A stretch of 64,000 nucleotides of DNA from Dipteris shenzhenensis (Eukaryota): assembly GCA_047967505.1 (NCBI GenBank), contig CM106538.1, one strand, 5' to 3'. Under the pieces are notes generated by a model. It ran no database searches. It was given only the letters and a program-made list of their open reading frames with translations, and was not told the DNA's origin. Positions 1 through 51,589 of the stretch are shown here, in pieces (the first letter of the stretch is position 1; each line of letters opens with the position of its first letter). The position numbers and the translations under genes are program-made.

Positions 1-615
1 TGACAGTTGGTTGGCGCTAACGAACCTACGTTCCGTGGGCTGGGAGATTTAACGACAGAATATAGTTGACAGCACGCCGCCATCTGTTTCGCCGTAGCTT
101 TGGCCCTCCAAGCTCACGTAAACAGATCGTAGTTGGGACTTCTTTGGCCACTAGTTCCGCTTATATGCTGTAGCTAGTTGATTGCAAATTGCTCGGGCTG
201 CAAGCTGTGGGATTCGAAGTTCAGGGAGCACTCTATCTATTTTCCCTTTTGGTTTTCGTTATTCCTGTTTTGTCGGAAGCAATTAGATTTTCTTGGTCAT
301 CAGAGGTCGCAGTTGATGATGCTATGGCAAGAATAAATTATGCTTGAACAGATTATGCCTGTGTGTTTCAGTCGGAGTCAGATTGCAGGAATTTCCTTAG
401 TATAGGGAAAAGCGCCCTCTGTGAGATATGCCTGTATTAAATGCTTGATTAGTGTGAATGTGGGATTGCAGGAATTCCCTAGTATAGGGAATTGTGTTCA
501 GAGTGTTAGTACCCTGAATTGTGTCAGCTTGTGATTACAGTGTTCTAGGGGTGTTTTAAAAATTATTTAAAAAAAAAAAAAAAAAAGCCCCAAAACAAAA
601 CACCTACTGAACTAA

Positions 616-3600
616 ATGGAAGCAGAAGAAGGAGCTTCCAGGAGGGACCCTGGTGAATCAGGAGTCCGGCCGACCCAGCAGGGATCGCGCCCAGTAGCTC
701 ACACTTTATCTGGCAGGATTGCATTGCTGGAGGATGCCTTGCAACAGTTGTTAGCGCAGCAATTACAAGCCAATGCAGGGCAATCTGAACTTAGGAGAGC
801 GTTACAGAGTATGTCTGCCAGACCTTCTCGAGAAGAGAAGGGAAAGGCTCCAATGGAACTGGAGTCTAGTGTCCATACGGTCGAGCCTAGGAAGGCTAAA
901 GTGCCGAATATTGCGAATTACAGACCGGAAAAGTATTCTGGTCGGATGAACGACCGTAGCTCCGATGTCATTGAGACCTGGTTACACAAATGGGACGAGG
1001 CGTTCGCCATTTGTGAGATCAGAAATGACATCAAAAAGATCCGCGAGGCCACCCATATGTTTAGTGAGGCGGCGGATCGGTGGTGGATTAAACAACAAAA
1101 AGATGGCATAGCATCCACTACCTGGGAGGGGTTTAAAAGAGAGTTCAGGAAACACTTCTTACCTCCTGACGAGGGATCCCGAGCTTGGGATCAATATAGG
1201 AACCTTCGTCAGAGAAATTTATCAGTGGCAGAATACACTGATAAGTTTCGAGAGAGTGTAATGAAGGTTGACGAACCCCTGCCTCAATCAATCCAAGTGA
1301 AAGATTTCATATTTGGATTGAATGATCGAATAAAAATGGAAGTTCGGGCTAAGTACGCGAACACGCTAGATGATGCAATAGCTATAGCTCTGAACTACGA
1401 GGATGCCAAGGGCAGCAAGCCAAGTGGGTTTGCACAGGTCGGAACCCAGTATGGGTATCCGAAGAAGTCTGGGTTTAAGAAGAAGTGGGCTAGTAGAGGG
1501 AGTGGTTCGCAGCCGAGTGGTCAAGCCAAGCAGGCGAGACCGGCTGAAACTCCTAAACCGAGTACCACCATTGGAGTGAAAAGGAAAGTAACTCCAATGG
1601 CAGCCCGGGCTTGGTCTAAGTCTCCCTTGAACCCGGAACAAAGGGAAAAAGCGAGGAGAGAAGGCTTATGCTTTGGTTGCCTTCAACCTCATCAGTGGAG
1701 AGATTGTCCACGTAATAAAGATCGTCGGATGGCTGAGATGGTGATCTCAGAGTGCGACGTGGAGATGCAGGGAAGTCCCAGAGCGGAAGAGATGCAGATT
1801 CAGCTAGCGGGATCTTCTCAAAGGTTAGTACCTTGTTTGTTCTGTGTGTCTGTTACTAAGTTAGTGACGAGTGCACCTGATAACATCCTATCTAAGCCCG
1901 CAGCAACGGGGTATACAGTCTTCAATGATACGGAGTTAATCAAAATGAAAGGGCAAGTGGCCAGTCATGATGTCATTGTGTTGTTTGACTCAGCGTCAAC
2001 TCACAATGTGATTAACTCCAAGCTCGTGAAGAGGCTGAAATTAAAGACAAGTCCATCTGACTATGCGTATACAGTCAGGATGGCCGATGGAAGTTCAACT
2101 GAAGTATGGGACCAAAGGGTTACCCAGTTAGAGCTTCGGATTCAGGACTATGCTGAGAAGTTTGATTTTGAAATAACCAAGCTTGCTCATGCGGATATAG
2201 CCCTGGGAATGGCATGGCATTCTAGGAAGAATCCAGCCATTGATTGGAAAAAGCACGTATATCAATTCAAGATGAATGATGTGCTTTATGTCTTGCGAGG
2301 TGAAAGAGATATACCTCAGGGACCGTTGGTTTCCGTGATGGAAATCAGAAAGGCTCAAGTAGAGTTTTTATACCTTTGCACAGCATCGGTAGAGTCGGTG
2401 GATGAGTCTTCGGCTAGCACTGATGTTATGCAAAGTGATGAGATGGCCAAGCTGGCTAACCTTATAACAGAGGAGTTCTCTGAATGTTTTAGGGATGAAC
2501 TACCTTATGGGTTACATCCAGAGCGGAAAGTTTAGCATAAGATTGAGCTGATCCCGGGGGCAGAACCTGTAAATAGACCTCCCTATAGAATGAGCTTTAC
2601 TGAAGAAGCGGAGGTGCGTAGGCAACTGGAAGAATACCTCAAGTTGGGGCAGATTCAACCGAGTTTCTCACCTTTTGCTTCGCCAGTGATATTAAAGAGA
2701 AAAAAGGATGATACGTTTCGCCTCTGTATAGATTACAGAGCATTAAATAATATCACTGTTAAGCACAGGTATCCGATGGCTCGGATTGATGATTTGCTAG
2801 ATGCATTACATGGAGCCGTGATTTTCAGCAAGATAGATCTTAAGTGCGGCTATCATCAGATCCGGATTAGAGCCGAGGATGTGCATAAAACCGCTTTTAG
2901 AAGCAGGTTTGGTCATTATGAGTTTTTGGTAATGCCCTTCGGACTTACCAATGCTCCAGCGACCTTCGTCATGCTTATGAGCGATTTACTACGTCCGTAT
3001 ATCGGAAAGTTCGTAGTACATTTTATTGACGATATCTTGATATTCAGTAAAAGTGTTACTGAGCATTGTGAACACTTAAGGATAGTGTTCAGTACTTTGA
3101 GGAAAGCCAGTCTTTACCTGAATAAAAAGAAAACTATACTGTGTATGGTTAGGCTTGAGTACTTAGGGTTCATAATTACTCCACAGGGGGTAGAAATGGA
3201 TCCGAAGAAAGTGGCTGCGATACTAACTTGGCCAATCCCTCAGAGTCTGACCGCGTTGCGATCATTCTTGGGATTTGTCCAGTTTTATAGAAGGCATATC
3301 AAAGGATATTCCGGAATAGTATCGCCATTGACTGATCTGACCTCAGATAAAGTACCTTTTATATGGGGACAGAATCAACAAGAAAGTTTTAACACCATAA
3401 AACAAGCTGTGGTCACAGGACCGGTGTTAAAAATAGTTGATCCCCAGAAACCGTTGTTCCTAGAAACCGATGCAAGTGGCATTGCGGTAGGAGCAGTCCT
3501 CCTTCAAGAGGGAAGGCCAGTAGCCTTTGAAAGCAAGAAGCTTTCTCCCTCTCAAAGGAATTGGCCAACTCATGAATTAGAGTTGTATGCTGTTATCCAT

Positions 3601-5330
3601 GCTTTGAAAACATGGAGGCATTATCTGTATGGTTCAGAGTTTTATGTGGATGTGGATCATGATACTCTGAAACATTTCTATAAACAGCCTGACTTGAGGG
3701 GCCGCCAAGCTAGGTGGGCAGAGCTCATGCAGGAGTTTAATTTAACGATTTGGTACCGAAGAGGAAAAGATAATAAGGTTGCTGATGCGTTGTCTCGCAT
3801 TATGCACAACCTGAGTTTCACGGTATTAGAGAGTGCTCTAATGACCGAGATCAGAGAAACTCAGAAGGTGGACGAGTTTGTCCAGAGCTTATGGCCTAAG
3901 GCTCATGTGTTAAAACCCGGGGAAAATGAAAAGGATGACCTGGCATCCAGAAAAGGCCAAACGTATGCAAGATATACCATAAGGGATGGTATGCTAGTTA
4001 GAAATGGCAAGGTTGTAGTACCTGGTCAGAATGATCTCAGGCAGAGAGTCATTCGACAATGCCATGATAGCCCGTGTGCGGGACATCCAGGAGTCGAGAA
4101 GACATATGATCTCGTGAAGCGAGATTTCTTTTGGCCAAAGATGAAAAAGCATATTCATGAATATGTGACACGGTGTTTCTCGTGTCAGGTAAGTAAGGCC
4201 GAGCGGGTGAAGCCACCCGGACTTTTACAGCCCTTGGAAATACCACTAAGTAAGTGGGAGAGCATTTCCATGGACTTTATTGTAGGGCTACCTGCAACAC
4301 AAGGAGGGTATAATTCTATCCTTGTGGTGGTTGATCGTCTAACCAAGATGGCTCACTTCATTCCGACTAGAGAGTCTGTTAGTGCCCCGCAAGTAGCGGA
4401 TTTGTTTATTAGACATATATTTCGTCTGCATGGATTGCCTAGATCCATAGTGTCAGACAGAGATGTTAGGTTTACAGGTCACTTTTGGACAGCGGTATTT
4501 GAGACACTAAGGACTGAGTTGGGAATGAGTAGTGGGGATCATCCTGAGACGGATGGTCAGACGGAGAGAGTCAACCAGACTTTAGAGGATATGCTGAGGG
4601 CATATGTGTCATCGAGGCAACATACATGGGACAAGTGGTTGCCATTGTTGGAGTTTGCCTACAATGATAGGAAACATTCATCTACGGGGTTCAGTCCGTT
4701 TGAACTGAACTATGGTTATAGACTAGCTAATCCAACTATAGTTGGAGTACCTCAGAAAGTGCCTAGTGCCGCGAACTTTGTAGTTCAGATGCGGGAGATG
4801 CTAGCAATTGCGAGAGCTAACATCCGCCAGGCTATGGATAGAGCCAAGGTGTATGCGGATGAAAATCGGTCTATAAGAGTATTTGAAGAAGGAGAAAAAG
4901 TTTTTCTCAGAATTCCTTCGCACTCGAAGTCATTGACTTCAGGGGAGTGTGCTAAGTTATCACCTCGATACTGTGGGCCGTGGTTAATTCTAAAGAGAAT
5001 AGGCAGTGTAGCCTATAAATTAGAATTGCCACAGGGGTGTAAGGTGCACCCGGTTTTTCATGTTTCACGCTTAAAGAAATTTTTACATACAGGTGACTCA
5101 CTAATCGAAGGTGTGGTTTTGTTTCAGGAGATAGAGGATATTGCAAGGCGCAAACCAAGCGCAAACCAACAAGAATCCTGGACCGAGGAACAATGCAAAT
5201 ACGAAATCGGAAGATACCCACGGTGTTGGTTGCATGGCATGGTCAGCCTCTATCCGAAGCTACCTGGGAATCCGTATATCAGTTGCGGAGAGTGTTCCCA
5301 GACTTTATCATCGAGGACGCTGATGTCTGA
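616..5330 (+). pseudogene. gag-pol: Disrupted gag-pol polyprotein of chromovirus copy 1
   Basis: Colinear with the 1567-aa ORF of copy 2. CAG>TAG stop at 2533-2535 (copy 2 reads GTT CAG CAT). An 11-bp tandem duplication GCGCAAACCAA (5148-5158 / 5159-5169) frameshifts the chromodomain. The original stop TGA is at 5328-5330. Confidence 0.93.
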
Positions 5331-5342
5331 AGAGGGAAGGAA

Positions 5343-5802
5343 TGTTACGCTCTAGCCGAGGTAGCATGACCTCGGAAGAATCAGTCGACATTTCCCTTAT
5401 AGGATCTATCTTTGTAATATATGTGTTTGCGCTTTATGTAAATGATCGGGAGGGATTAATGTCAAGGTCCTAGGTGAGGGTTGATAGCACCAGACTAGAT
5501 AGATCTGAGACCAAGGGCCTAGTGCAAAGATTGTGCCTAAGGGGCAAGGAATTAAATGCATCCCAAGAGAGGGGTGAAATGTTGCATTAGGAAGGCCCTA
5601 TATGGATGACATGTGGCATCTAGATCTATCTAGGGATTTGGGGTCTGTCAAGGCTAGTGAGAGAAGATAAGGATTTAGTTTTACGTGATTTCGTACACAA
5701 CTCTATCTCTCTTGCTTGGGAGTCTTGGCAGAATTGGCTGGGAGGAAAAGAAAGGTGCTACTCCCGTGATATCTGCAGTGAGAAAATCAGAGATAGGTGA
5801 CA
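5343..5802 (+). repeat. 3' LTR of chromovirus copy 1 (~460 bp)
   Basis: Starts TGTTAC right after the PPT. The first ~313 bp match the copy-2 LTR. The end is placed at ...AGGTGACA by analogy to ...AGGTTACA in copy 2. Confidence 0.85.
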
Positions 5803-5869
5803 GATAGCTGACAGAAGCAGCTCAAAGAAAAAAAAGAAATACGGGAGTAAGACAAGAACAAAGTAGAGG

Positions 5870-6760
5870 AATGTTGGATTTAGAAAAATTGCTCTTATTG
5901 ATGCGCCAAGAGCGCAAGCATGAGGAGGCAATTAGACGCGACCAGATGGTCCAAGCCTAGAAGCAACACAGACTCAACCGAGAAACCATGTTGCTCTAGT
6001 AACTACAGATTTTGGCCACTATGTAGGCTAGCATGAGCACAATAGTTCTTGCCACACAAGCCTTGACATCAACCAAGGTCACTCCACTCACTCGGTCCAT
6101 GCCGAACTTCATGAAATATATCGGTAAGTGTGACCACCCAGCTAATTTACAGTTTATTCATGAGTTTGTTGCTCACTTTTCGTTAGCATGCATTCAGGAT
6201 GAACGAGACAAAGTTTAGAGTGAGCCCATTACAAAAGTTCGTGGCTATGCCATTTGGTCTCAAGAATGCACCGCGAACTTTTAACAAAGTTATGTCTTGG
6301 GTGTTTGCTGAGTACATAGGAGTGTGTCTATTCATCTTTTTGGATGATGTTTTAAATTTTTTAAGTACAGCGGAGCAACACTTAAGAGATGTGTGGAAGG
6401 CCCTTCAGCTTTTGCGCGATTGGCTCTATCTCAATGCTAAAAAGAGCGAGTTTGGGCTGATGGAAATACAATATCTGGGCTTATTATCAGTGTAGATGGC
6501 ACCCGCTTGGACCTTGAAAAGATTCAGGCCATCACAAGCTGGGCAGTCTGCACGATGGCTCAGGAGATCCGGTCCTTTGTTGGGCTTTGCTAGGCTTACA
6601 GCTTTCACATGCTTGGATTCTCCACCATTGCAGTATCCTTAACAAATTCACTAAAAGGGGGTTAAGACACACCGATAAAAGATTTTAGTCACCTTACAGA
6701 GGTTGGCCACCACAACTCCAGTTATAAAGATAGTGTGGGGTGGTGATTTAAGCACACGTA
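5870..6760 (+). mobile_element. Old, internally deleted Ty3/gypsy relic (gag-like plus RT fragment)
   Basis: FVAMPFGLKNAPRTF...FIFLDDVL...LYLNAKKSEFG..EIQYLG are Ty3 RT motifs (6199-6495). Stops and frameshifts are present; boundaries approximate. Confidence 0.75.
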
Positions 6761-8200: not shown

Positions 8201-8853
8201 GGTGTGGTGGGTATCAGTGCAAGGAGGAGAGTCTACTATCTAGGAGCTGAGCTGCTAGATGTTGTGAACTATTATTGCTCATGAATGTCAATGAGAAATT
8301 GAGGACCCAGAAAATAAGCTTTGCTAGACTCTATCATGTCAGCTTCTTTTTCTGGCTACTGCTATGATCATCAACTCTTGAGTGCGTGGAATTTTCAGGA
8401 ATATGTGACCTTAGTTGTGTATGATGCTTTCATTCTATGCTATGCATTGCTAAGTCTGCTGCTTGAAGTATCTTTGAGAGGAATTTTACAAATGAATAGT
8501 TTATATTTGTGCTTAAAGTTAACTTAGAAAGAAATTTTCTTTGGTAATTTAAATATTACTGAATTGAAGACTTTCCAATGTTGGTATGTTGGATAGCACC
8601 TTGGACTTCACAAATTTACTTGATACGGTAGTCTTCTTATACAATTTGTGGAAAAATTGAAGACAAGCAATACCTACTTTTTAGTCATTCAAGCAGAAGA
8701 TCTAGGTCTGCATCTACTCAGGTCCAGCTTCTATACATGGAGGATATGTGATTTGTACTTACCAGAATTTATACTCATGCTTATGGCTTGCAGATTGCTA
8801 TAGTTCTCTTATATTAACATGTTTCACTGTGCTTGTCCAATTGACTGATGTAG

Positions 8854-8942
8854 TATACTGCCAATGTAAAGGCTGCAGACAGTCAAGCGTCAGGTGAAGA
8901 TGGTAACCACGGAGATTTTTTTGATTTTATTGGAGAAGACAG
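8854..8942 (+). CDS. Host gene exon ([29 protein letters not shown])
   Basis: tag| acceptor and AG|gttc donor; open frame; phase joins the next exon as Arg (AG+G). Weakly conserved sequence. Confidence 0.65.
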
Positions 8943-11900
8943 GTTCAAATTCCCTCTTAAGCCACATTATTTTGTAGATTCCTTTAGAAAAGTATCTGAA
9001 CGATGGCCAATATTTTGATGTTGCTTTTGAGTCTTCCAACTTCCAGTATCCTTGCTATGGTTTCTATTGATTTCATCAAAACCTGTTTTGAGGGATAAAC
9101 AGGGATCAGTGGAGTGATGCCAATGAAGAGGATGGGTCACTTTCCTTCCCATCTTATTTCATTGATGAAGATGTATGGCTCCATCCGTGCTATTCTAACT
9201 TCTGCTCCATATGATGGTTTTTGTTACCTCGCTTCTTTAAGGAAAACTTTATTTTCCCTTAAATTTTAATGCATTTCCAGTTCCTTTCAGAACAAAAATA
9301 ATTGGTCTTTTTCCTTTTTGGCTTTGTAGGCAGTTGTTTGCCTTGATGGAGATGGTTGCCGAGTCCGAGTAGGTCTTGCAGCAGAAGATGGGGAATCTGG
9401 TTTTGAGGATACATCAGTGGCATGCGACTCCTGTGATTGCTGGTGCAACATCTTTTATTGATTCTCATTGATATGCAATTCTTATATTGCTTTTGTTGAG
9501 CGTTAAGGATCAATGTGACGATGTTGCAAAATTCCTTTGTTGAGCGTTAAGGCGTTAAGGATCAATGTAGTGATGTTGCAGAATTCAAAGAAGGTCATGT
9601 TATGGAGCAAGTTGAGCAGGAAAAAGTTACCGGAAAAGTTTTGTAAAGCTTATTTTCTGTGCTCTGGACATACAGGTATCATGCAACGTGTGTTGGATAC
9701 AAAGCTGAATCTCAAAGTGGAGGATCCTGGCTTTGCCCAAGGTTTATTTGCACTGTGGACATTTGTTTTTTGTCTTTCAATGCTTTTCCAGTCTGCTATG
9801 GGTGTTAGTCGGTTGCATTCAGCGTGAAAATATTCAGCATTGAAGGGCATTTAGAGAAGGCACTATAAATGAATTCAGTTCAATCAGCTTTGATGCCTCA
9901 AAGCTTGTTGGAAAAAAAGAATACGAGAAAAGTATCCTGATTGAAGTAGTTAACTATGTAAGTATGGGCAAAAGAGTGGCAGTGCAAAATGGGGCTTTGT
10001 TGATTTGCAACCCTTCAAAGAATTTTATTAACTAACCAGGCTGCTATCCCATCTTGATAAAATCTTCATGGTAGGTAGGACAGGATTGATATGTATGCTA
10101 GTGATCCTGCATTACAAGGGCTAAGCAAAACAATCTCCAGCAGAAAGGGATCAGGGTGGTTACCTGGTTGGATATGATGATCTGAGTTCCTTGAATCATT
10201 CAGAGGTCAAATTGCAGAGGGGGGAACATACAATAAAAGGTGGCCTCATTCTCATTCGTCTATCAAATTTCTGTTTTCCATAAAAATTAATATAGCCCTA
10301 GCAAGGACACGATCTGTGACGTATTCCTTTCTCTATACCTTAGACTTATGGATGGTTTGATGAATGGACACTTGTGGAAGGGTATGCCCTTTCGACGGGA
10401 CACTTCCTATGAGGCACAACCCTTCACAAGAGACACATTCTATTGAAGAGACACTACCATTGTAATGTACCCTCTCGTTAGGGTCACACCCTTCACAAGG
10501 GGTACAGACCTCTTCATGCACATACACTTTGGAGTACACACGTTTTCATGTGTGACTCTTCACTCTCTATATAAGAGAGACCCAACTGTATGGACGATAC
10601 ACTACAGACACTCAAGCAATACACAAATATTCCATTACAGTCTCTTTTCTGTGCCTTAGCACATTTCTAAATATAGTAAATCTAGGATTTCTTACAGTGG
10701 TATCAGAGCTAATTTTGCTACTGCTTGTAGGAAATGCCCCCCACCTTCTAGCACCTTTCTGATTATCTACTTCCACTAGAAGGATATCCATGCACTTTGT
10801 GCATGGAAGAGATGGAGAGAATGAGCGTAAAAAATTTTAGTGCCAACCCCACCTAAGTCATCAGTGGCCTCTCTATCTTCCTCACATCATGAGTTGATGT
10901 GAATGGACACGACAAAAATTGTGTCTTTTGCTTAGTTTCGTAGTGGAGACTCATCACTCTATTGGGCACTCTGTATAAGAGCAATCAGCCTACGCTTGCA
11001 GCCCACTCAATGGCAGCGCAAAGGCATCATGACATTAGGCTGCAACATATCAACCATATTGGCCAATATACATCCACATATCCCCTCAATCATAGCATCA
11101 AGAAGCTCCAACTTTGGGCATCCACCACAGGATCAGTCTCAACTAGAGTGCAGGCAATGAGTAAATTTCCTATTTATGGCATCAAATATTCCTCAATAGA
11201 GCATAACCACACCTTCGGTAACAAGGCATCCACTTGTCACAATTTAGATAAACTGATTTTCTGTTTGTACCTACAGTTCCTACTCCTAGGCACAATCTAT
11301 GCCAATCCTTGCAAACGAAACTAAAAATGGAGGAAAGAAAAGGAAATGGAAGGTGTCACCCAGGGGGGCTGAGACTCCTGCTGCACCTGTTTGGGAGGGT
11401 GCTGGGTCCTGGCCTGCTGATTCTTCTTGCTTTGTGGGGGTGGGGGGGGAGGAGCCCAGCCTTGGCCGCGGGGGCAATCTCTGGCTAGATCCATCTCCTG
11501 CAACGAAGACACTGGCTTGGTAACCGAGAAATCTCCACTCGCTGGCGAAGTGTACCCTCCTCAAGGGTCTCAAGGAGGATCAACTTTGGGAGGGACTCCG
11601 GGCTCTCAATCACCAGTTTGATCCTGGGGACCCCATCATCTGCTGCTACCACTGATGTGGCCGAATCTGGCGGGGACTCTAGCACAGTGCCAAACGCTTG
11701 ACCAATGGAGGGGAGGATGGCTCTATATTCCTTAGGGAGTCTCGGGAAGTAGAGCGTAATCAGAAAACGAGGAACATGGTGTGTCATGTCCATGTCCTCC
11801 ACTGTAAAGCCATGGTACCAAGGGACGAGGTACACCAAATGCGGGCCAAGGAGTGTGGGACTCTGCTCCACAAGTGCAAAGATGGTAGCGGGGGAGCTCA

Positions 11901-14900
11901 ATTGGATGAGGAAGACGCCTCTTCCGTAGATGGTGACTTCTTGAATGTGGTCGCCATCTAGTGCCAAGATCGCCTAGATCCACTCTCGCACTTGTCTCCT
12001 TGTGAGTGTGAGGCCTCACGATCGCCTTGTCCTGGAGGGATTGAACTGCTTGCTGTATCTGTTGCTTGTCGGTTGGAGAAAGAAGGACCTTAACGGCTGT
12101 GGGATTGGAGGGTGCTGCCATAGAGCCTATCTGACCAGACCAAGGGTCACCACCAAGATTTTCCTCCTCCGAACAAACACAAATGCCCCCGCTGTAAAGG
12201 AAGAAGAGGGAGAACCGAAAGGAAGGAGGCGAAGAGGGGGGTGGGACGAGGCAGAGAGGAGGACATGAGGCGAGGAGGGGCGGAGAAGGCGGGGAGGAGG
12301 AGGCAAAGAAGGGAGGCAGGAGAGAAGCGGGAAGAGGCGGGGGGCAGTCGGGGGAGGCGGGGGCGGAGATAGTAGCAGGGGGGGCGAGAGGAGTAGTGAC
12401 GGCGGAGGGGGTGGTAGAGGAGGAGGTGGGGGCAGCGAAGGTGGCGGAGGAGGCGTGGACGGTGGAAGGAGGTAGCAGAGGTGGAGGTGGCATGGACGGG
12501 GGAAGAAGCGGGATAAGGGCATACCCAAAGAATGCATCCACACTCTATGTGATCTATAAGGTGATTGAGTCACGAGAGCACTTTGCTTTCAAATCCTTGT
12601 GTACTACGAGATTTGAGGTTGTTACCATTGTCTTTTGAGAGATTTTTGCTGACCTTCATTCATGAGGTTGTATGACACAAAGATCATCTGCTCAGGGCAC
12701 ACATATGAGATCAGGGTGCTCAGCGAGATTCCACTCAAAGTGTGATCATTGAGTTTTTCCAGCCAGATAGCACGGACCAGCAAGCTCTAGTAAGATGGTG
12801 TAGCTGAGGCCCAGAGTGAGAGACACAACAGAGCCATTAGTGGGTCGGTGCAAAGATCAGGCTTGGGGATCTTCCCTCTATGTTCACTAGACCAGAGGTA
12901 CAACCTATTGGTGTGATAGTGGCACTTGTCCGAAGCAGCGCCATAGCTATGAGACCACAGTGGACCAGACACATTGATCGTCACCATTGCTCTATCATGG
13001 GTTTTGTGCCCCCGCAGCCTCGTGCATCATCGGGACTCCTCATAGGCTCGACGACTCCACCAACATCCAGAGGACCACCTTAGTGATGCCACACCCCAGT
13101 TTTCATTCTGTCCATGGGCTTAGACATATTTTGTACTAGTGTGTCTAGGTTTTATGTTGTACCAGTCTTGGGTGTAGATGCTCGCTTAGAGGCTCCACCC
13201 TTTCAGCTCATCGTATATGGTATTTTCAGTGTCATAGACCCTTCGGTCTTTCAAAGGCTTCTAATAAACTTCCCTTCTTTCAAGGTCCACTCATCTCATA
13301 TCTTGGCTTGTATATGGATGGACACAGCACATACCTTGATGGCCATCTAGCTGAATATGCAGGGATCTTTCAGGGCTGCTGTTGCTAGGAGGACTGTTTT
13401 CCTCAAATTTGTATGGGATACTTGTTTCGCAGTTTCAATCACTTCAGTAGCCGCTTTGGTTGATTAATTGTTTGGAACTCAAACCCATGTTGAATTGCAA
13501 AATACGGCTACAATAACACCGGATCCGCCTAGTATATTTGCATTGCCTCATGGTGAGGGAATTTTTTTGACTGGTCACAGTGTTACTTATAAATAGGCTG
13601 CTAAACCACCAACAGGGAGGAGAAGGATAGAGATGAAGCCACTTTTTACCTTTCTCTAGAAGTGGTAAGGTTTTCATCAAGCAGCAAAGCTTACAAATGG
13701 TGGATGAACTCGCATAATAGTGGTCTAGTCCCTGGTACTTGGTTGGGCATTGTGAAGATATTTCTAAAAGAGTTTCTTCTAGAGAATGAGCAAGAAAAGT
13801 CCTTGAAGATGCGGAAAATTTCTGAGTATGGGGAAGTCCCCATTTAATCAATACATTGCCAAGGCTATTATCACATTAGAAGACCTCACTACGTTCCAAT
13901 AGATTTGGGGATATATACATGAAGGGCCAGCTATGTTTTAAATGTTGCAGCAAGGAGCATATAGCCATAGATTGCCCTAATCAGCTTGAAGGGAATAATT
14001 ATTCACTCATACCTTGGCATGCTCTTGTCATATTAGTGCCCTTTTGTGATAGATATTTCATGGATTCTAAGTGTCTAATTGAAGGCAGGTGTTTCAAAAG
14101 ATACAGATCTACATGGGTGATAAACAAGAAAAGATGATATAGGTGCATGCTGGTAAGAGAGGTTATAAATGGGTCCTGAGGAATATCTGCAAGGGAAAAG
14201 TAGTGGATATTCCTCAAGTAAGAGGGATCATGACTGCATATCATTGAGACAGACAAATTACGAAAGCGTCCTCATGTGCTATGAAATTTTGTCTGAAATG
14301 TCTTGTTGCAATTCTACACTAGGTAATGGGTGCATGAAGCATATCATGGGATGCTAGAGGGCAGCCTAAAGGAGAATTGCCTTTGTAATTAACAATTCAC
14401 TTAATTTGTGGATGCAGGTGTGCTGGTACTGGTGTTTTGGATTTGTTTGACTCCCAGTTTAGCTTTCATTCAAATTTACCTTCTTCAGAAAGGAGTTCTT
14501 CCTTGTTCAAGTTTGCAAATGAGAACAATTCCCGGGAGGCTGGTTGTGCTGTTACAGTAACTGATGCAGGAGAAACAGCTGTGGTGGTTTCCATGGATCC
14601 TGCAGATGGTCTTTCAGATAATGGGAATGCTCTGCCTGTAGTGGCTTCTTCGCATCTATGTGGCAGTGAAATACAAGTTGAGCCTTCTGAGCTGGAAATG
14701 GACAGCAGTACAATAGAAGTTGAGCCTTCTGAGCTGAAAATGGATAGCAGTAGTTCGTTTCTCAGGTTTTCCTTGCTACAATCTTCTGAAGCAGTTTCTA
14801 ACAGGTCTGATTCTGGTATAAAGGTGGCTCAGAACACATCTACCTTCAAAGGCGATATTGATAAGGATATGAACCAGGAAAGAACGGATGAAAAGCTTGA

Positions 14901-17900
14901 AATATCTTGTTCTTCACATTTGTTCCTTACATCTTGTCCTGGTGTTTTGGCGGCGAGTAATAACACCTTGGTTTCAGATGTGGAATCTAGTCCTAGTCAT
15001 ACTATCCAACAAATTTCAGAAAAATTTCATGATGAGCCTGTTCCAAAGAGTGAACATGAGGTTGTAAATGCAGATGTACTGGATAGTTTTGACACCAAGC
15101 TTGAAATGGCCACCGATAAGGAAATTGGACGTGCTGTAGAGAAGGAAGAAGGTAGTGTGAATATCAGACAGGATGAATTTCAAGGTATTTGTGGCAAGAG
15201 GATTAAAGATGCCAAACGAAAGTTGAGATCAGAGGACAGGTATAAGTTACTGCTTTTGAAAATTTTTGATCACATTGGTCCTTAATTATATGTTCATAAA
15301 GTTGGTCTTAAAAGTTAAGGCTTGCTGTCTCTGTAGTTATGGCTATTTCACAGTTCACTGATCATGGCACATATGTATATGAAACACTTGCACATTCCCA
15401 TTGCTCATACATACATGTAAGCTAATGAAATATTACTGAAATGATAGATGTTTGTAAAATTCTTCTCTACCTATAAATGTGGTGTATCGTTTTTCTGGAA
15501 ATATGGTGTGACATGCATTGTATTACGAGTTGCTGATTCGTGATAGTTTCTGCATCTGTCCTGAATTTTACTGTCTCTAAAGCATTGATATATGTGCAAA
15601 TACGACACCCTATGATAAGAATGATGTAGACTTCTTTTGGAACCTCACAATTTAATTCAGATCTGAATAGAAAATCGAAACTAAAATTGTGCTGGTGGAT
15701 AGTCTCGGTTACTTGTCAGTAATGGCAGATAGTGGGCAAGCTCTTTTGGTAGGAAAGTGCTAGGGCTTGGGTGCTGTGCATGTATTTCTGAAGATATGGG
15801 CTTTTGTACACTCTGTTGCATGCAGGGAGTTTTTACCCATAAAAGTTTCACGGCATAATCTATCCAAAAGATCTCCGAGTAAAAATGTAGGTCCTCAAAC
15901 AGGAGAGGAGCTAACAGAGGAAGAGCTTGTACAGCCTATTGCTACAAATAGTATAGTGCAAGATGGTTTCACAGAGGTAAAGTTGGAAACAGTCATGCAT
16001 GAACCTTCCAAAACAAAGGGTGGACCTTTGGATGAGTTGACACAATTGGTGCAGGGTCCCTCTCTCAGAATCCAGAGGAACAAGAGTCTTCAATATGCAA
16101 CTGCAACTAAAGAAAATAAGCACATCAATGATGGGGTAAGGACCAGAAAAATCGTTCACCGAGGGAGTGACCTAGAGGGGAAAACTTCTGTAATAGTGGA
16201 TCAGGTACGGCGGCATTTAAAGGAGGCAACCGGTCCTGGTGCCTCGAAAAATCTAGGAGAAGTTAACGTGACAGATGCAAAATTTATTGCCGCATTCAAA
16301 GCTGCAGTTGTGAGCTCTCAAGTTGGGATGAGACAATATTTGGCTCCTAAGCAGAGGCCAACCATTCCTAGGAAGGGTGTAAGTAACAAAGATGGAGTCC
16401 GACAGAGTTTGGCACAAAAGCTCTATGGTGCCAGTGGAAAGCGGCGCCAAGCATGGGATAGAGACTGGGATATTGCCTTTTGGAAGGAGAGAGCATCAAA
16501 GGAAAAGAAGGCGAGGCATGAAGCAACAAAATTGGATATGGATGTGGCATTGGAAATGGCATTGATTGAGAAAGCAATAGGAGATTCAAAAGAAAGCAGC
16601 AAGGTAGAGGTTGATTCACTTTTGAGTAGAATATACCCTGCAGATGCTTCTCTTTTTCCGAGGCAGCCTGATATAAAGCCTCTTGCTGAACAGCTGAGTT
16701 TTAAAAGGAACCCTGTACAAGCAAAACAAACTGAAAATGCAGGTCATACAAAGCCCGAGAAAGGGGTCACACAACAATTGAAAGTTGCAAATACAGGGAA
16801 TATACCAGCCTTAAGAAAAAAGACAAAAGATTCAGATTCCATAAGTGAGAAATCAGATTCTAGAAGTCTTAGTACATGCAGACCTGCTGTCAATGGTGGT
16901 CAGGACTTGAAGGCTGACAAACGAAAATGGGCCCTTGAAGTACTTGCAAGAAAGACTGCGACTGGAGCAAAAGGTTCAGTTTTAAGAGGAGAGAAGTCGG
17001 CACAGGATGGGTTACCGTTGTTGGTGAGTATGTTGATCTTTGCCTAAAGTTCAAACATCCTCCAGAAAAATGAGAAGTCAGTAGCATGCTGGCTGTTCGA
17101 ATTAAACTGGCTTTCTTTTCTGTTTGACTTTCATTTCTATTTGTTTCAATTGCTCACAATTTTCTTAATTGATTTATATTCTCCCCTTTCTATTTAATGT
17201 CGGCCAACATTGTTTCAGGCAGAGTTACCTTTGCATATGAGGCCGGTACTTGAATATGACCGCCGCAGTAAAGTGCCAACCGCAACTAGGCAGGTACTCT
17301 GTTTTCAAAGTACCTTTTAGCTCTGCACGTCTAACTCTGGCTTTTGGGAGCTTTCTGGGATTGTGCAAAGCTGACTCCTTCTGTTGTAGGCCTTGTTAAA
17401 TTTCTCCATGCTGAGGGAAGCCACTTGCTTCAGGTACATCTCGATCGCTTTGTTGATTATTATCTGCGGAGAGCAAATCTAAAGAGTGTGGGAGAAAATC
17501 CAGAATGCAAAACTGCTATCTTAGCAGCAGTGTGCAAAGAAGCGGCTATTTATGATAGAGCCAACACAAAAGGTGTCTATGTGAACTTTTGTGTACAAGC
17601 TCTTTCTTTTTCCTCAAATGTGGAAAATGAGGTAGAGCTTACTGGGCAAGATACAGCAAAGGCATCAATCACAGAAGTTCCACAAGTGACACAAGATGAA
17701 GACATGGCTGTTATCAGAGCGTGGACAGCAGCTGGGCTCATTTCAGATTCGCCATCTGAAAGCGCATCTCATGAAGAGGGTTCTAACAGTTTATGTGCTG
17801 AAACAAGCCTATTTGATCGCGAAAATAATCCTTCTTCAAACATCTGCCGAGAATGTGAATGCGATCCAGAAATGGAAGCCAAGGAAAATGATCGTAGTAG

Positions 17901-20900
17901 TGCCAAGCAAAATTTCCAGTCTGTCACTCACTGTCATAGTGATGCTGCAGCAGCAGTACTGGCAACTGCTGCCAAAAATGCATCTTGTCAGCTTCTACCT
18001 TCCAATACTAGGTTGGCCTGTAATGAGCTTTATGGAGCAGAAAGGGAAGATGGTGTATCAGACGGGCTGACTGCAGTGGAGGCTTCTCAAGTGGTCAACG
18101 GAATCGACAATGAAAGGGACATGGGAGATAGTTTCATTCCTGAACAGAAAGAGAGTCCTTCCATTGGGAAAGGGAGGGAAGAACCTGGCGCAGAGCTGGG
18201 ACATTTGATTGGTGTTGAGAATAAAAATGCTTCAGAAATAACGTCCAAAACTGTGAGCAGCAGTGAGGTCCAGATTGAGGCAACAATGAGCAGTATTGCA
18301 GCTGTTCACATAGGAAAACAGACAGAATGTCATGAACCCATGATGCCATCCATAAGTAGTGAACCTCATTGCTCAACTGTTGACACAAATATTCAGGAAC
18401 CACCTTTCATATCTATAAGAGAGGCAGAGAAGGAAGCACTAGAGGAGGCACCACAGACAAGTGTAAACATGGAGGCAATTTGGAAGCAGGCAAGTCTCTG
18501 TAAAGAAGTAATTCATCCCATACTAAAACACTCACAAGTAGATTACAAATCACTAGCTACAGAAAGTGTGAACTCAAAGCGTGCATACACTGCATACAAG
18601 ACTGCAAGTCTGATTGTTTCAATATGCTTTGTTTCTAATCAGAAATTTATTGTCAGTTGGCCTCTGTTTTAGCCATGATGTTCGTTGATAGCTTCTACTT
18701 TTCTTGTTGGTGCCTTGTTTGTGTACTAACAGGCTGTGGGCCTCTATCTGAATGTGGAGTTTCTTGTTGCTGACTTCTGCTTTTGATTCTGCGTTTCTCT
18801 TATTGGCACCTCACAGTTCAGCTTAAAGTAATTTATATTTTCAAAATTTGCATAAAATCCCTAAAATTAAGAAGAAAGAAATCTTGTGGAGTTGTGCAGA
18901 AAAAAGCTTACAGTGGCCAACCCAATCAAGCACGGTTCAGCGGCATGTACTGCTAAGAAATTGCTAATTCGGGGGCCATCATCCCAGGACCTCAAAGGAT
19001 TTTGATCTGGACAGAGGCTCCTTGAGCTCATCATCCTCTCTCTCCAGATATGACACAGCAGAGCTCCAGAACAACTTTTTGGCTAAGAACAGAGAATCCA
19101 CTGGGAGACTGAACTTTGGACCTCAAATCATGCTATCTCACTGCCTATTGTCTCCCAAAGCTTTATTAGCACTTGTGACTGGATCTTGAGGGCCATGTGC
19201 TGCTCCTAAGCAGCCATTTCCTGCAGCCGAATCTTCTGCTCACATGGCAGCCAGCATGATCCTCATGTGGCAGCCCTGCTACTCCTGTCAAATCTGTCCC
19301 TGTGGCAGCCTTCTTTGCTGCCTATGTGGCCTCACAGATGTTGCTGGTACATGTGCCCTATGTCCTCCTTATTTAGGGGACTCACAAGTGGGAGGTGACC
19401 TATATTCCTGTCATAGTTGTCCCCGTTGCAGCCTTCCTTACTGCCTATGTGGCATCTCTCTGTCTCAACAGATTCTGCTGGTACACCTCCCCTATGTCTT
19501 CCTCATGTGGGGGCTCACACGTGGGGAGGTGATCTATACAATCCCAACAAGTTCTTATGCCGTTAGCTATGTTAGTCAGTATATGGCACTTCCAAAAGCC
19601 AGTCATTGACGGACAGTCAAAAGGATCCCCAGATACATCAAAAGTACCATGAATTTTGGGATCTTGTCTGGACAGTCCAAAACTCCACAGTTTGCAATGG
19701 TTTTACGACATTGATTAGGTAAGCAGCAAAGACACAAAGCCTACTATAGGCTACACTTTTCACTCAGCACTCACATTATTTTGTGGGTGAGCAAAAAGCA
19801 AAATACTAATGCTTTTTCTTTCACTAAGGCTGAGTATATGGCAGCAATGTCAGCAAATGCAGCAATATTTGAAGTGATTGTCTTCAAAGATTACTTGGTG
19901 ATCTTGGCATACTAGTTGATTCAAAGCATGCACCTAATGGATAGTGTGATTGGAAGCATTCAAGGCTTTTTGAAATGCTTCGACGAATCATCTCTAACTC
20001 ACTTGGATGTTGCCGCCATTGTGTGCGACTCCTCTGCCTGGCCTTAGTTCTGCTTTTGGGTCTTGCCTCTCTCACAATTCTCTCGGAAAATTGTGAGATC
20101 TAAGGAATCTCTCTGAGTCTTATTCAAGACAAGATATAGCTTTTTACATAGAGACCCATCAGAGCCCCCAGAGTGCCCGCGCCCTTTGCCTGTAATTAGT
20201 GGATACACATGGGAGTCAGTATACCGGCATGAGACTCGAGGATAGGTGGAGTGCATGGATTGGGAGGAGTAGCAACACTATACTGATCATCTCTCACTGG
20301 GTTGATCTCCGTTGGGAGGCATGACATATTTTTTGAAGCCCCTCTCGACAGGACCTCTTCATTTCAGTATGCTACTTCCTCCCCTAGACCTCACACTTTG
20401 CTGGAGATGTACGCAGGGAGGGTAGACTTCACTATACACAGCCCTACACCATAACATCATGGGTTTCTCAAGCCGCAAGGAAGAGCTCCTTGTACTTATC
20501 TAGAGAAGTGGTCACTTGGTGGTGCACAAACCACTACAATACAGATATGGACATAGCTAGGCATGATTGGGACGAGTTTCTCAAAGACATCCGGACTCAA
20601 TTTGATATCTAATTAAACATTGACGATAGCAGCAAGTTGGATCTGCTGTCCTTCCTTCACAAGGCTGCACCATGCCACCCAAATGTTCTAGGTTATAATA
20701 CTGGCAAATGGTCTCCCAAATTTTATCCTTACAACAACTCGAGGGTCACTACTTAGGAAGGAGGACCAATGTAAGCCCCCAAGAAAACCATCCGAGCTGC
20801 CCCATGCATCCTTTGTGAAAACACTAAAAAGATGCAATGTACTAGGCCATGGCAAGCAATACCAAGTTGACCATCAATGCTCTGCTTATGAGGGAGAGTA

Positions 20901-23900: not shown

Positions 23901-26900
23901 ACAGGCTCTACATTGGGGATTGGGCGAATCAGAGAGGAGCTGTCAGGAGAGAGAGGACAGAGATGGAAGAGAGCGAGAGCAGGCAAGGACGATGATGTAA
24001 GATGATTCCCCGGTCGTGCTTCACTTAGAGCAGCCCTTGGAGGACTCCCATAGAAGGGGGGTTTGCTTCAAGAGGAGGTTGTTCAATAGGCCGTGGCAAA
24101 GATTTGGCAGCAACCACAGAGCCCCCCTGTGGAAGGGTGGGCGACCTGGGTGGCAAACGTGATTCCGAGAAGCATGAGGAGCTCTAAACCTAGGCTCTTC
24201 ATCGTTGTCACACTCTCCGAGAGAGGAGAGAGCACTGAGACAGAATTTGGTCTCAATAGAGCAACTTAGAGAGTCATCGTTGCTTTGAGACCAATATGAG
24301 AGTGAGAGTGCGCTGCTCCAACTTCAGGCTGCGGAGATTGTTCAAGCGGATTTCTCTTATCATTCCTCTAGGATATGGTTGGTTCATGTAACCTGACGTC
24401 TCTATTCTCGCTTCTATTTACTGATCACGGGAGTAGCACCATGTCTATCCACCCAGCCAATTCTACCAAGGCTACCCAGCTTGGGAGAGAGAGAGAGCTG
24501 TATCAATATCACGTAAAAATCACGATTCTTCATTCTCTATCAAGCCTTGACAGACCCCAATTCCCTAGATAGATCTAGATGCCACATGTCATCCATATAG
24601 GGCCTTTCTAATGCAACATTTCACCCCTCTCTTGGGATGCATTTAATTCCTTGCCCCTAGGCACATTCTTTGCACTAGGCCCCTGGTCTCAGATCTATCT
24701 AGTCTGGTGCTATCAGCCCTCACCTAGGACCTTGACATTAATCCCTCACGATCATTTACATAAAGTGCAAACACATATATTACAAAGATAGATCCTATAA
24801 GGGAAATGTCGACTGATTCTTCCAAGGTCATGCTACCTCGGCTAGAGCGTAACATTCCTTCCCTCTTCAGACATCAGCGTCCTCGATGATAAAGTCTGGG
24901 AACACTCTCCGCAACTGATATACGGATTCCCAGGTAGCTTCGGATAGAGGCTGACCATGCCATGCAACCAACACCGTGGGTATCTTCCGATTTCGTATTT
25001 GCATTGTTCCTCGGTCCAGGATTCTTGTTGGTTTGCGCCTTGCAATATCCTCTATCTCCTGAAACAAAACCACACCTTCGATTAGTGAGTCACCAGTATG
25101 TAAAAATTTCTTTAAACGTGAAACATGAAAAACCGGGTGCACCTTACACCCCTGTGGCAATTCTAATTTATAGGCTACACTGCCTATTCTCTTTAGAATT
25201 AACCACGGCCCACAGTATCGAGGTGATAACTTAGCACACTCTCCTGAAGTCAACGACTTCGAGTGCGAAGGAATTCTGAGAAAAACTTTTTCTCCTTCTT
25301 CAAATACTCTTATAGACCGATTTTCATCCGCATACACCTTGGCTCTATCCATAGCCTGGCGGATATTAGCTCTCGCAAGTGCTAGCATCTCCCGCATCTG
25401 AACTACAAAGTTCGCGGCACTAGGCACTTTCTGAGGTACTCCAACTATAGTCGGATTGGCTGGTCTATAACCATAGTTCAGCTCAAACGGACTGAACCCT
25501 GTAGATGAATGTTTCCTATCATTGTAGGCAAACTCCAACAATGGCAACCACTTGTCCCATGTATGTTGCCTCAATGACACATATGCTCTCAGCATATCCT
25601 CTAAAGTCTGGTTGACTCTCTCCGTCTGACCATCCGTCTCAGGATGATCCCCACTACTCATTCCCAACTCAGTCCTTAGTGTCTCAAATACCGCAGTCCA
25701 AAAGTGACCGGTAAACCTGACATCTCTGTCTGACACTATGGATCTGGGCAATCCATGCAGACGAAATATATGTCTAATAAACAACTCCGCTACTTGCGGG
25801 GCACTAATAGACTCTCTAGTCGGAATGAAGTGAGCCATCTTGGTTAGACGATCAACCACCACAAGGATAGAATTATATCCTCCTTGTGTTGCAGGTAACC
25901 CTACAATAAAGTCCATGGAAATGCTCTCCCACTTACTTAGTGGTATTTCCAAGGGCTGCAAAAGTCCGGGTGGCTTCACCCGCTCGGCCTTACTTACCTG
26001 ACACGAGAAACACCGTGTCACATATTCATGAATATGTTTTTTCATCTTTGGCCAAAAGAAATCTCGCTTCACGAGATCATATGTCTTCTCGACTCCTGGA
26101 TGTCCCGCACACGGGCTATCATGGCATTGTCGAATGACTCTCTGCTTGAGATCATTCTGACCAGGTACTACAACCTTGCCATTTCTAACTAGCATACCAT
26201 CCCTTATGGTATATCTTGCATAAGTTTGGCCTTTTCTGGATGCCAGGTCATCCTTTTCACTTTCCCCGGGTTTTAACACATGAGCTTTAGGCCACAAGCT
26301 CTGGACAAACTCGTCCACCTTTTGAGTTTCTCTGATCTCGGTCATTAGAGCACTCTCTAATACCGTGAAACTCAGGTTGTGCATAATGCGAGACAACGCA
26401 TCAGCTACCTTATTGTCTTTTCCTCTTCGGTACCGAATCGTTAAATTAAACTCCTGCATGAGCTCTGCCCACCTAGCTTGGCGGCCCCTCAAGTCAGGCT
26501 GTTTACAAAAATGTTTCAGAGTATCATGATCTACATCCACATAAAACTCTGAACCATACAAATAATGCCTCCATGTTTTCAAAGCATGGATAACAGCATA
26601 CAACTCTAATTCATGAGTTGGCCAATTCCTTTGAGAGGGAGAAAGCTTCTTGCTTTCAAAGGCTACTGGCCTTCCCTCTTGAAGGAGGACTGCTCCTACC
26701 GCAATGCCACTTGCATCGGTTTCTAGGAACAACGGTTTCTGGGGATCAACTATTTTTAACACCGGTCCTGAGACCACAGCTTGTTTTATGGTGTTAAAAC
26801 TTTCTTGTTGATTCTGTCCCCAAATAAAAGGTACTTTATCTGAGGTCAGATCAGTCAATGGCGATACTATTCCGGAATATCCTTTGATATGCCTTCTATA

Positions 26901-29900
26901 AAACTGGACAAATCCCAAGAATGATCGCAACGCGGTCAGACTCTGAGGGATTGGCCAAGTCAGTATCGCAGCCACTTTCTTCGGATCCATTTCTACCCCC
27001 TGTGGAGTAATTATGAATCCTAAGTACTCAAGCCTAACCATACACAGTATAGTTTTCTTTTTATTCACGTAAAGACTGGCTTTCCTCAAAGTACTGAACA
27101 CTATCCTTAAGTGTTCATAATGCTCAGTAACACTTTTACTGGATATCAAGATATCGTCAATAAAATGTACTACGAACTTTCCGATATACGGTCGTAGTAA
27201 GTCGTTCATAAGCATGACGAAGGTCGCTGGAGCATTGGTAAGGCCGAAGGGCATTACCAAAAACTCATAATGACCAAACCTACTTCTAAAAGCGGTTTTA
27301 TGCACATCCTCGGCTCTAATCCGGATCTGATGATAGCCGCACTTGAGATCTATCTTGCTGAAAATCACGGCTCCATGTAATGCATCTAGCAAATCATCAA
27401 TCCGAGCCATCGGATACCTGTGCTTAACAGTGATATTATTCAATGCTCTGTAATCTATACAGAGGCGAAACGTATCATCCTTTTTCCTCTTTAATATCAC
27501 TGGCGAAGCAAATGGTGAGAAACTTGGTTGAATCTGCCCCAACTTGAGGTATTCTTCCAGTTGCCTACGCACCTCCGCTTCTTCAGTAAAACTCATTCTA
27601 TAGGGAGGTCTATTTATAGGTTCTGCCCCCGGGATCAGTTCAATCTTATGCTGAACTTTCCGCTCTGGAGGTAACCCATAAGGTAGTTCATCCCTAAAGC
27701 ATTCAGAGAACTCCTCTGTTATAAGATTAGCCAGCTTGGCCATCTCATCACTTTGCGTAACATCAGTGCTAGTCGAAGAATCATTCACCGACTCTACCGA
27801 TGCGGTGCAAAGGTACAAAAACTCCACTTGAGCCTTCCTGATTTCCATCACGGAAACCAACGGTCCCTGAGGTATATCTTTTTCACCTCGCAAGACATAA
27901 AGCACATCATTCATCTTGAATTGATATACGTGCTTTTTCCAATCAATGGCTGGATTCTTCCTAGAATGCCACGCCATTCCCAGGGCTATATCCGCATGAG
28001 CAAGCTTGGTCATTTCAAAATCAAGCTTCTCAGTATAGTCCTGAATCCGAAGCTCCAACTGGGTAACCCTTTGGTCCCATACTTCAGTTGGACTTCCATC
28101 TGCCATCCTGACTGTATACGCATAGTCAGATGGACTTGTCTTTAGTTTCAGCCTCTTCACGAGCTTGGAGTTAATCACATTGTGAGTTGACGCTGAGTCA
28201 AACAACACAATGACATCATGACTGGCCACTTGCCCTTTCATCTTGATCAACTCCGTATCATTGAAGGCTGTATACCCCGTTGCTGCGGGCTTAGATAGGA
28301 TGTTATCAGGTGCACTCGTCACTAACTTAGTAACAGACACACATAACAAACAAGGTACTAACCTCTGAGAAGATCCCGCTAGCTGAATCTGCATCTCTTC
28401 CGCTCTGGGACTTCCCTGCATCTCCACGTCGCACTCTGAGATCACCATCTCAGCCATCCGACGATCTTTATTACGTGGACAATCCTTCCACTGATGAGGT
28501 TGAAGGCAACCAAAGCATAAGCCTTCCCTCCTCGCTTTTTCCCTTTGTTCTGGGTTCAAGGGAGACTTAGACCAAGCCCGGGCTGCCATTGGAGTTACTT
28601 TTCTCTTCACTCCAATGGTGGTACTTGGTTTAGGAGTTTCAGCCGGTCTCGCCTGCTTGGCTTGACCACTCGGCTGCGAACCACTCCCTTTACTAGTCCA
28701 CTTCTTCTTAAACCCAGATTTCTTCGGATACCCATACTGGGTTCCGACCTGTGCAAACCCACTTGGCTTGCTGCCCTTGGCATCCTCGTAGTTCAAGGCT
28801 ATAGCTATTGCATCATCTAGCGTGTTCGCGTACTTAGCCCGAACTTCCATTTTTATTCGGTCATTCAATCCAAATATGAAATCTTTCACTTGGATTGATT
28901 GAGGCAGGGGTTCATCAACCTTCATTACACTCTCTCGAAACTTATCAGTGTATTCTGCCACTGATAAATTTCTCTGACGCAGGTTCCTATATTGATCCCA
29001 AGCTCGGGATGCCTCGTCAGGAGGTAAGAAGTGTTTCCTGAACTCTCTTTTAAACCCCTCCCAAGTAGTGGATGCTATGCCATCCTTTTGTTGTTTAATC
29101 CACCACCGATCCGCTGCCTCACTAAACATGTGGGTGGCCTCGCGGATCTTTTTGATGTCATTTCTGATCTCACAAATGGCGAACGCCTCGTCCCATTTGT
29201 GTAGCCAGGTCTCAATGACATCGGAGCTACGGTCGTTCATCCGACCAGAATACTTTTCCGGTCTGTAATTGGCAATAATAGGCACTTTAGCCTTCCTAGG
29301 CTCGACCGTATGGACACTAGACTCCGGTTCCATTGGAGCCTTTCCCTTCTCCTCTCGAGAAGGTCTGGCAGACATACTATGTATCGCTCTCCTAAGCTCG
29401 GACTGCCCTGCATTGGCTTGTAATTGCTGCGCTAACAACTGTTGCAAGGCATCTTCCAGCAATGCAATTCTGCCAGATAAAGTGTGAGCTACTGGGCGCG
29501 ATCCCTGCTGGGTCGGCCGGACTCCTGATTCACCAGGGTCCCTCCTGGAAGCCCCTTCTTCTGCTTCCATTTAGTTCAATAGATGTTTTGTTTTGGGGTT
29601 TTTTTTTTTTTTTAAAAAAACACCCCTAGAACACTGTAATCACAAGCTGACACAATTCAGGGTACTGACACTCTGAACACAATTCCCTATACTAGGGAAT
29701 TCCTGCAATCTCTTATGCACACTGACTAGGCATTTGATACATGCATAACCCAAATAGCGCTTTTCCCTATACTAGGGAATTTTCTGCAAACTGACTCTGA
29801 TCGGAGCACACATGCATACACACAAGTATAGTAACCGCAAACTCCTCTATACTAAAACAACAAACTGTATAACCAAACTGAAATTTTATAGTGAAGGAAA

Positions 29901-51490: not shown

Positions 51491-51589
51491 AGTCTTTTAT
51501 GCCATAACAATTAGGACTAGTTTTTTAGTAGTATTTAGTTTTCTTTACCAATTACAATAGTAATGGATCATTTTAAAATCAAATTTAAG

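Follow-up and report, generated by a model that had tools for sequence, protein, structure and literature searches.

Plant hairpin (inverted-repeat) small interfering RNA (siRNA) loci, like intron-spliced hairpin constructs, carry a long near-perfect inverted repeat that can be transcribed as one RNA. A second kind of system depends on retroelements standing in reverse-complementary orientation in the introns on either side of an exon; in maize, such pairs of LINE1-like elements with their reverse complements (LLERCPs) and the presence/absence variation of these pairs are described as linked to circular RNA (circRNA) and linear RNA levels (10.1101/100578; PMC9860190). One of these reports counts few plant circRNAs that rely on reverse-complementary sequences in their flanks: 46 of 6074 in rice and 1 of 5152 in Arabidopsis are among its figures, and the main exception is maize, where 17.3% of circRNAs have LINE1-like pairs (PMC9860190). 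Here, we analyzed 64,000 nt of contig CM106538.1 from the fern Dipteris shenzhenensis (GCA_047967505.1; hereafter, the window), in which two copies of one Ty3/gypsy chromovirus-type family stand in opposite orientations around eight exons of an At4g10930-like host gene. An earlier note on this DNA had proposed that the pair could yield a circRNA, a skipped exon block or double-stranded RNA (dsRNA) from the host transcript. Our data favor a plainer account, with a probability of about 0.72, in which two unrelated insertions are tolerated in introns and ordinary linear splicing predominates.

An inverted pair of retrotransposons around eight host exons

Both copies are of the same kind and face each other across the exon block (Table 1). 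A repeat search returned inverted arms at 573-5158 and 25028-29613 (4586 nt, 97%), together with shorter adjoining arms, and blastn aligned 354-5770 with 29818-24424 at 96.1% across 5423 columns. When 354-5802 was aligned by MAFFT to 24387-29818 in reverse complement, 5230 positions matched, 190 were mismatched (134 transitions and 56 transversions) and 41 columns held gaps, corresponding to 96.5% likeness over approximately 5.4 kb. Identity was 96-98% in gag-pol and in the first ~310 nt of the long terminal repeat (LTR), and ~87-90% at either end. The arms share 78 perfect runs of at least 21 nt, amounting to 4469 nt, of which 49 reach at least 40 nt and the longest 214 nt. Thus the inverted pair of ~5-kb chromoviruses described in the earlier note stands, with the likeness of copy 1 to copy 2 beginning at 354 rather than at 470; the regions named there as nearly identical (gag-pol and U3) were correctly chosen, while the actual figure is 96.5%. 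The separation of ~18.6 kb was measured as 18,584 nt, from 5802 to 24387. The repeat itself is real and far beyond chance. An assembly artefact or duplication was considered and ruled out by the 190 differing positions and the indels, by the different flanks, and by the target duplication that copy 2 has of its own.

Between the copies, the large forward-strand frames resemble At4g10930-like RING/PHD/EloA-BP1 proteins (137 matching proteins at E <= 0.001). The nearest relative is a transcript-derived protein with 49% identity, followed by proteins of the ferns Adiantum and Ceratopteris at 40-42%. In tblastn searches with four relatives (P0001, P0002, P0005 and P0007), residues ~97-1300 were collinear with 9092-18621, with residues ~97-190 and ~500-1000 lying in order within that interval, and the last ~65-70 residues of all four mapped beyond copy 2, at 35917-36126, with 60-88% identity. 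Overall, the exons in the window align along the relatives from residue ~80 to the C-terminus, the PHD finger, the EloA-BP1 region and the conserved C-terminal domain being collinear with them (domain positions in P0001 and P0002 from Pfam). Since the exon encoding this C-terminal domain lies beyond copy 2, copy 2 is located in the last intron. The first 36 kb of the window contain most of one long forward-strand gene filled with transposable elements (TEs). The function of the At4g10930 family is unstudied, and in a full-text literature search At4g10930 was named in 2 papers, once in each.

Recomputing the eight exons bore out what had been claimed for them: they sum to 3489 nt (1163 codons), are in phase 0 at both ends and contain no stop in their frame, while the two remaining frames hold 56 and 107. 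A doubled block, mimicking a circle, was also free of stops. The block contains 17 methionine codons, the first being codon 172. An AG acceptor precedes all eight exons and a GT donor follows all of them except exon h, whose donor after 18489 is GC (AG/GCAAGT, cut at the slash) and opens the 17.4-kb last intron that also houses copy 2. The first exon in the window has a good acceptor and no upstream methionine codon. Two candidate acceptors, 8854 and 8872, lie 18 nt apart, both in phase 0; with the latter, the block measures 3471 nt and is still a multiple of three and free of stops. In exon e, a 42-nt tandem duplication (14663-14752; 2.1 copies, 89% matches) repeats a 14-residue acidic peptide in frame.

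Transcript evidence and the position of copy 1

Transcript data were drawn from the Logan contigs of four small runs (X1-X4; none on record as RNA), aligned to positions 1-20000. A 4421-nt contig of X1 showed seven GT..AG joints (8938>9099, 9172>9330, 9441>9675, 9739>14416, 15236>15823, 17022>17218 and 17290>17431), which, after shifts of the cut, coincide exactly with the exon boundaries given in the earlier note; because of these joints, the contig is taken to be a spliced transcript. Its last piece ends at 18490 and is followed by 348 more letters, a length that suits the exon at 35920 together with a short 3' untranslated region (UTR), and the extra letter at 18490 fits the G beginning the last exon. 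In X2, the 17022>17218 joint is spanned by one contig, while another four fall inside exons e, f and h, record 14 ending at the donor at 18490. X3 and X4 gave next to no matching contigs. Across three listed pieces of the X1 contig, 46 of 3081 letters departed from the window, as did 20 of 1705 letters in the five listed exon pieces of X2; the source of both is therefore a close relative, another allele or a homeologue, and not the exact sequence. Linear splicing of the block is accordingly something seen in a close relative or allele. Among the joints listed for these assembled contigs, none was a back-splice from 18489 to 8854 or 8872, a skipping joint or a read-through joint; rare forms are dropped in assembly, and this absence counts neither way.

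To the left of the first joint, the X1 contig has 67 letters, starting at 8872 directly after the AG at 8870-8871. This suggests that the acceptor in use may be 8872, 18 nt inside exon a, with 8854-8871 being perhaps intronic or alternatively spliced. By subtraction, the contig extends approximately 600 letters further upstream of 8872, and none of these letters is found within 1-20000. None of the four runs had any depth across 6004-8671, and the contigs of low depth in 1-667 belong to other records. In view of this depth and of the placement of the upstream X1 letters, the upstream exons do not lie between copy 1 and the first exon of the window. The RING finger of P0001 occupies residues 31-71 (Pfam), and a tblastn search of the 64-kb window with the first 135 residues of seven relatives (E up to 50) gave nothing better than E ~1 for the RING-coding part among the matches listed; the RING-coding exon or exons are presumed to lie upstream of the window. 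Taking together the ~600 upstream X1 letters outside 1-20000, the depth of zero in 6004-8671 and the absence of the RING part from the window, copy 1 very probably, and most simply, lies inside an intron of at least 8.9 kb. The claim that copy 1 is intronic, with the RING exons upstream, thereby gained support from the RING search and from the upstream X1 letters, although it is still a matter of inference. A transcript start downstream of 5802, which would have placed copy 1 outside the pre-mRNA, is not what X1 shows: in this relative or allele, the ~600 upstream letters are located elsewhere.

Two insertions and linear splicing as the probable account

Copy 2 is a clean recent insertion. As had been claimed, it is very young, its two LTRs differing at 1 of 468 positions, and the 5-bp target duplication around it is perfect. 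Assuming plant substitution rates, this single mismatch would presumably place the insertion, very roughly, within the last 10^5 years. The 190 differences and 41 gap columns with respect to copy 2, along with an in-frame stop and a change of frame, mark copy 1 as a separate and probably older event. We therefore propose that one active Ty3/gypsy chromovirus-type family would have inserted twice, independently, into an At4g10930-like RING/PHD/EloA-BP1 gene of a fern, each time in a long intron, copy 1 being the older, broken, sense insertion and copy 2 the recent, intact, antisense one. The host gene would still be read as a linear mRNA, with the eight bracketed exons being spliced and then joined to the C-terminal exon past copy 2. 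The layout would make long-range pairing of the introns possible, with little or no product to be expected, and we infer that the pair is without notable effect.

The layout is real and probably ordinary. Nine intron positions were seen in the host gene, five in phase 0 and four in one other phase; therefore, 16 of the 36 intron pairs enclose a block that keeps the frame. Finding such a block between two insertions is thus close to a coin flip, expected by chance about 4 times in 10 in this gene, and any two insertions of one family have one chance in two of being inverted. The block is free of stops because its exons are the coding exons of the host gene itself. Inverted retroelement pairs flanking exons are a kind of structure already known. 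In ferns, introns filled with TEs are presented as routine, and TE insertion into introns is reported to have made exceptionally long genes in Ceratopteris, with 17,745 introns longer than 10 kb (PMC9477723). The locus illustrates that introns of fern genes can accommodate LTR retrotransposons of full length, whichever way these are oriented.

Several points weigh against this account. The arms are very long, with their 78 perfect stretches, and the repeat search found no other inverted repeat of at least 100 nt in 1-40000; without such a competitor, the two arms, if held by one pre-mRNA, would be expected to pair, and this pairing would be strongly favored. The X1 and X2 contigs, at ~1.2-1.5% difference from the exons of the window, may come from sequences lacking one or both insertions. 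In the maize data as reported, exons that have a reverse-complementary retroelement pair beside them tend to show higher circRNA and lower linear RNA levels (10.1101/100578). A circRNA, a skipped isoform and dsRNA or siRNAs nevertheless seem unlikely outcomes of the pair.

Alternative outcomes of the pair

If the host gene were read through both copies, the resulting RNA could fold into a long hairpin and feed Dicer-like enzymes, with the siRNAs targeting the retrotransposon family in trans and, possibly, the host gene in cis. The perfect complementary stretches (78 of at least 21 nt, 4469 nt in all) would suit such processing, both arms are probably in one transcription unit, and a target in trans would exist, the family being present in many X1 and X2 contigs at high summed depth. 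We nevertheless consider this outcome unlikely. Given co-transcriptional splicing, pairing would require that the upstream intron remain unspliced while a further ~19-25 kb is transcribed, so that a single RNA holding both arms meets a problem of timing. Small RNAs of a multi-copy family are also hard to assign to one locus. In addition, the RNA-directed DNA methylation (RdDM) branch is described as apparently inactive in Ceratopteris and as lost in some ferns, and it may be weak or absent in a part of this group (PMC9477723).

It is similarly improbable that copy 1 lies outside the pre-mRNA of this allele, either by loss of the RING exons or by a transcript start downstream of, or inside, the 3' LTR of copy 1, which would leave only copy 2 intronic and no hairpin to be formed. 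The tblastn result for the RING part (best E ~1 among the matches listed, also for the two nearest relatives) is in keeping with this possibility, as is the difference of 1.2-1.5% between the transcript contigs and the window, which makes them something other than the exact allele; the sense-oriented 3' LTR of copy 1 could in principle drive read-out transcription. However, the ~600 upstream letters of the X1 transcript are not found in 5803-8871, the first exon of the window has a good acceptor without an upstream methionine codon, and the intact 1163-codon block suggests a functional gene.

A more far-reaching reading holds that an insertion dating back no more than about 10^5 years gave rise to an intronic inverted repeat of 5.4 kb around the eight exons, which now diverts part of the pre-mRNA into a 3.5-kb circRNA with an endless reading frame or into hairpin siRNAs; as a whole, we regard it as quite improbable. 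If true, it would present a natural, datable and possibly still polymorphic transposon pair that rewires the output of a conserved host gene of chromatin/transcription type. Were the pair to have any effect, the locus would offer a clean test, set up by nature, of the power of long inverted retrotransposons to drive back-splicing or the formation of hairpin siRNAs in plants with giant TE-filled introns.

For the circRNA in particular, pairing of the arms would bring the donor at 18489 to the acceptor at 8854 or 8872, and back-splicing would give a circle of 3489 (or 3471) nt with a frame without stops. The ~5.4-kb arms of 96.5% likeness, found in both flanking introns provided that copy 1 is intronic, are what such pairing would use, the block is a multiple of three and open round the circle with its 17 methionine codons, and precedents are reported in maize and animals. 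Against this, the arms are 3.05 and 5.9 kb away from the block's splice sites, and a circle would have to take in eight exons along with seven internal introns, one of 4.7 kb. The upstream intron would have to stay unspliced during the same ~19-25 kb of transcription. Flanking complementary repeats are reported as absent from most plant circRNAs (PMC9860190). The listed contig joints, which include no back-splice, add weak evidence in the same direction. The formation of this circle appears very unlikely. A skipped isoform, in which the block is looped out and the upstream RING exon or exons are spliced to the exon at 35920 to give a short in-frame RING plus C-terminal-domain product, is the least credible of the outcomes, for while the arithmetic of the earlier note holds, phase 0 at both block ends and at the start of the exon at 35920 meaning that skipping would preserve the frame, the one full contig among those aligned to 1-20000 represents the complete linear form.

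Structure of the two copies

Copy 2 is a complete element with a single open frame of 1567 codons (24870-29570), in which Pfam domains follow the order Retrotrans_gag, aspartic protease, RVT_1, RNase H, integrase zinc-binding and core domains, and SH3_Tf2-1. A TGGTATCAGAGC-type site resembling a primer-binding site (PBS) was found 2 nt past the 5' LTR, and presumably matches initiator tRNA-Met; a purine tract precedes the 3' LTR. The Chromo match in Pfam had an E value of 0.0095 for the whole protein and, for the last 70 residues, 9.8e-5 (22.6 bits, below the cut-off of 25.1 bits). All five matches of copy 2 to sequences in the PDB were chromodomain proteins, all weak (E 0.1-0.81). Judging from these protein matches, the label "chromovirus" appears reasonable for the elements, although the Pfam cut-off for Chromo was formally missed.

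Copy 1 carries the same domains in the order of copy 2 (gag, protease, reverse transcriptase, RNase H, integrase and SH3_Tf2-1), distributed over two open reading frames (ORFs; 616-2535 and 2536-5355). Its gag-pol is interrupted by an in-frame stop at codon 640 (2533-2535), and its frame shifts just before the chromodomain, giving a C-terminus unrelated to that of copy 2. Its LTR resembles that of copy 2 at ~97% over the first ~310 nt, with the remainder diverged. No 5' LTR of copy 1 was seen in the window, which contains its 3' LTR only, and 1-353 showed no similarity to the 5' region of copy 2, even in a short-word search; copy 1 is either 5'-truncated or continues past a breakpoint. An 819-nt X2 contig matches 52-268, and the stretch 1-353 may be another repeat or the breakpoint of copy 1. 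One X2 contig joins 5793, at the LTR end, back to 889 in gag, and is probably from a family member that has been rearranged and lies elsewhere in that organism.

Table 1. Coordinates of the two retrotransposon copies, the host exons and an additional element fragment in the window
Feature	Position	Strand	Remarks
Copy 1, Ty3/gypsy chromovirus-type, broken, in the orientation of the host gene	354..5802	+	blastn vs copy 2
Copy 1 3' LTR	5343..5802	+	ends ...ACA at 5802; blastn 393/434
Degenerate reverse-transcriptase fragment of another element, between copy 1 and first exon	6187..6492	+	Pfam RVT_1 E 2.7e-12
Host exon a	8854..8942	+	start maybe 8872 (transcript contig)
Host exon b	9103..9172	+	GT..AG joints 8938>9099 (cut +4) and 9172>9330 in contig X1; tblastn
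Host exon c, PHD-finger region by homology	9330..9442	+	
Host exon d, PHD-finger region by homology	9676..9741	+	
Host exon e	14418..15239	+	
Host exon f	15826..17023	+	
Host exon g, start of EloA-BP1 region by homology	17219..17293	+	
Host exon h	17434..18489	+	GC donor after
Target-site duplication of copy 2, left, GTTCA	24382..24386		
Copy 2, complete young Ty3/gypsy chromovirus-type element, antisense to host gene, last intron	24387..31124	-	
LTRs of copy 2	24387-24854 and 30657-31124		468 nt each, 1 mismatch; TG start, CA end
Target-site duplication of copy 2, right, GTTCA	31125..31129		
Last coding exon, conserved C-terminal domain, 73 codons + stop	35920..36141	+	CAG acceptor, phase 0

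Other features of the window

Outside both elements, 67 ORFs of at least 90 aa were present. Eight of them, overlapping host exons e, f and h, were set apart (three of these eight were scanned against Pfam separately), and a Pfam scan of the other 59 gave a single match, the reverse-transcriptase fragment at 6187-6492. The window contained no Rfam match at gathering score and no tRNA. In intron 4, 10006-11339 had a very high summed contig depth (123 in X1 and 160 in X2 for the bin 10006-10672), probably reflecting an abundant small repeat, and the reverse-strand frames at 11488-12544 are proline-rich, with no Pfam match. Just past the host stop codon, a 61-nt tandem duplication (36215-36336; 2.0 copies, 96% matches) probably lies in the 3' UTR. 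Downstream of the gene, a direct repeat pair (39499-40472 and 51567-52522, 67%) and an inverted repeat pair (54943-55262 and 63692-64000, 83%) were found; this repeat-bearing region is AT-richer (GC 32-37%), and its ORFs of at least 90 aa had no Pfam match.

Comparison with known systems

In its elements, the locus agrees with plant Ty3/gypsy chromoviruses, showing the order of gag, protease, reverse transcriptase, RNase H and integrase, LTRs of the TG...CA type, a 5-bp duplication, a PBS-like site and a polypurine tract, whereas its chromodomain match remains at 22.6 bits against the 25.1-bit cut-off of Pfam. The host gene is comparable to At4g10930-like land-plant proteins, with its exons collinear to the C-terminus and its nearest relatives at 40-49% identity, and departs from them in that the RING-coding exon or exons lie outside the window. 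Like the inverted Alu pairs of animals and the LLERCPs described in maize, the two copies are reverse-complementary retroelements located, in the case of copy 1 very probably, in the introns flanking exons with canonical splice sites. Unlike those pairs, which consist of short pieces of short or long interspersed nuclear elements, the arms here are 5.4-kb LTR retrotransposons located kilobases from the splice sites, and the bracketed block, at 3.5 kb in eight exons, takes in almost all of the coding region. The locus also shares with hairpin siRNA loci a long near-perfect inverted repeat that could potentially be present in one RNA, and differs from them in that its arms, with 18.6 kb between them, belong to separate introns of a gene that codes for protein.

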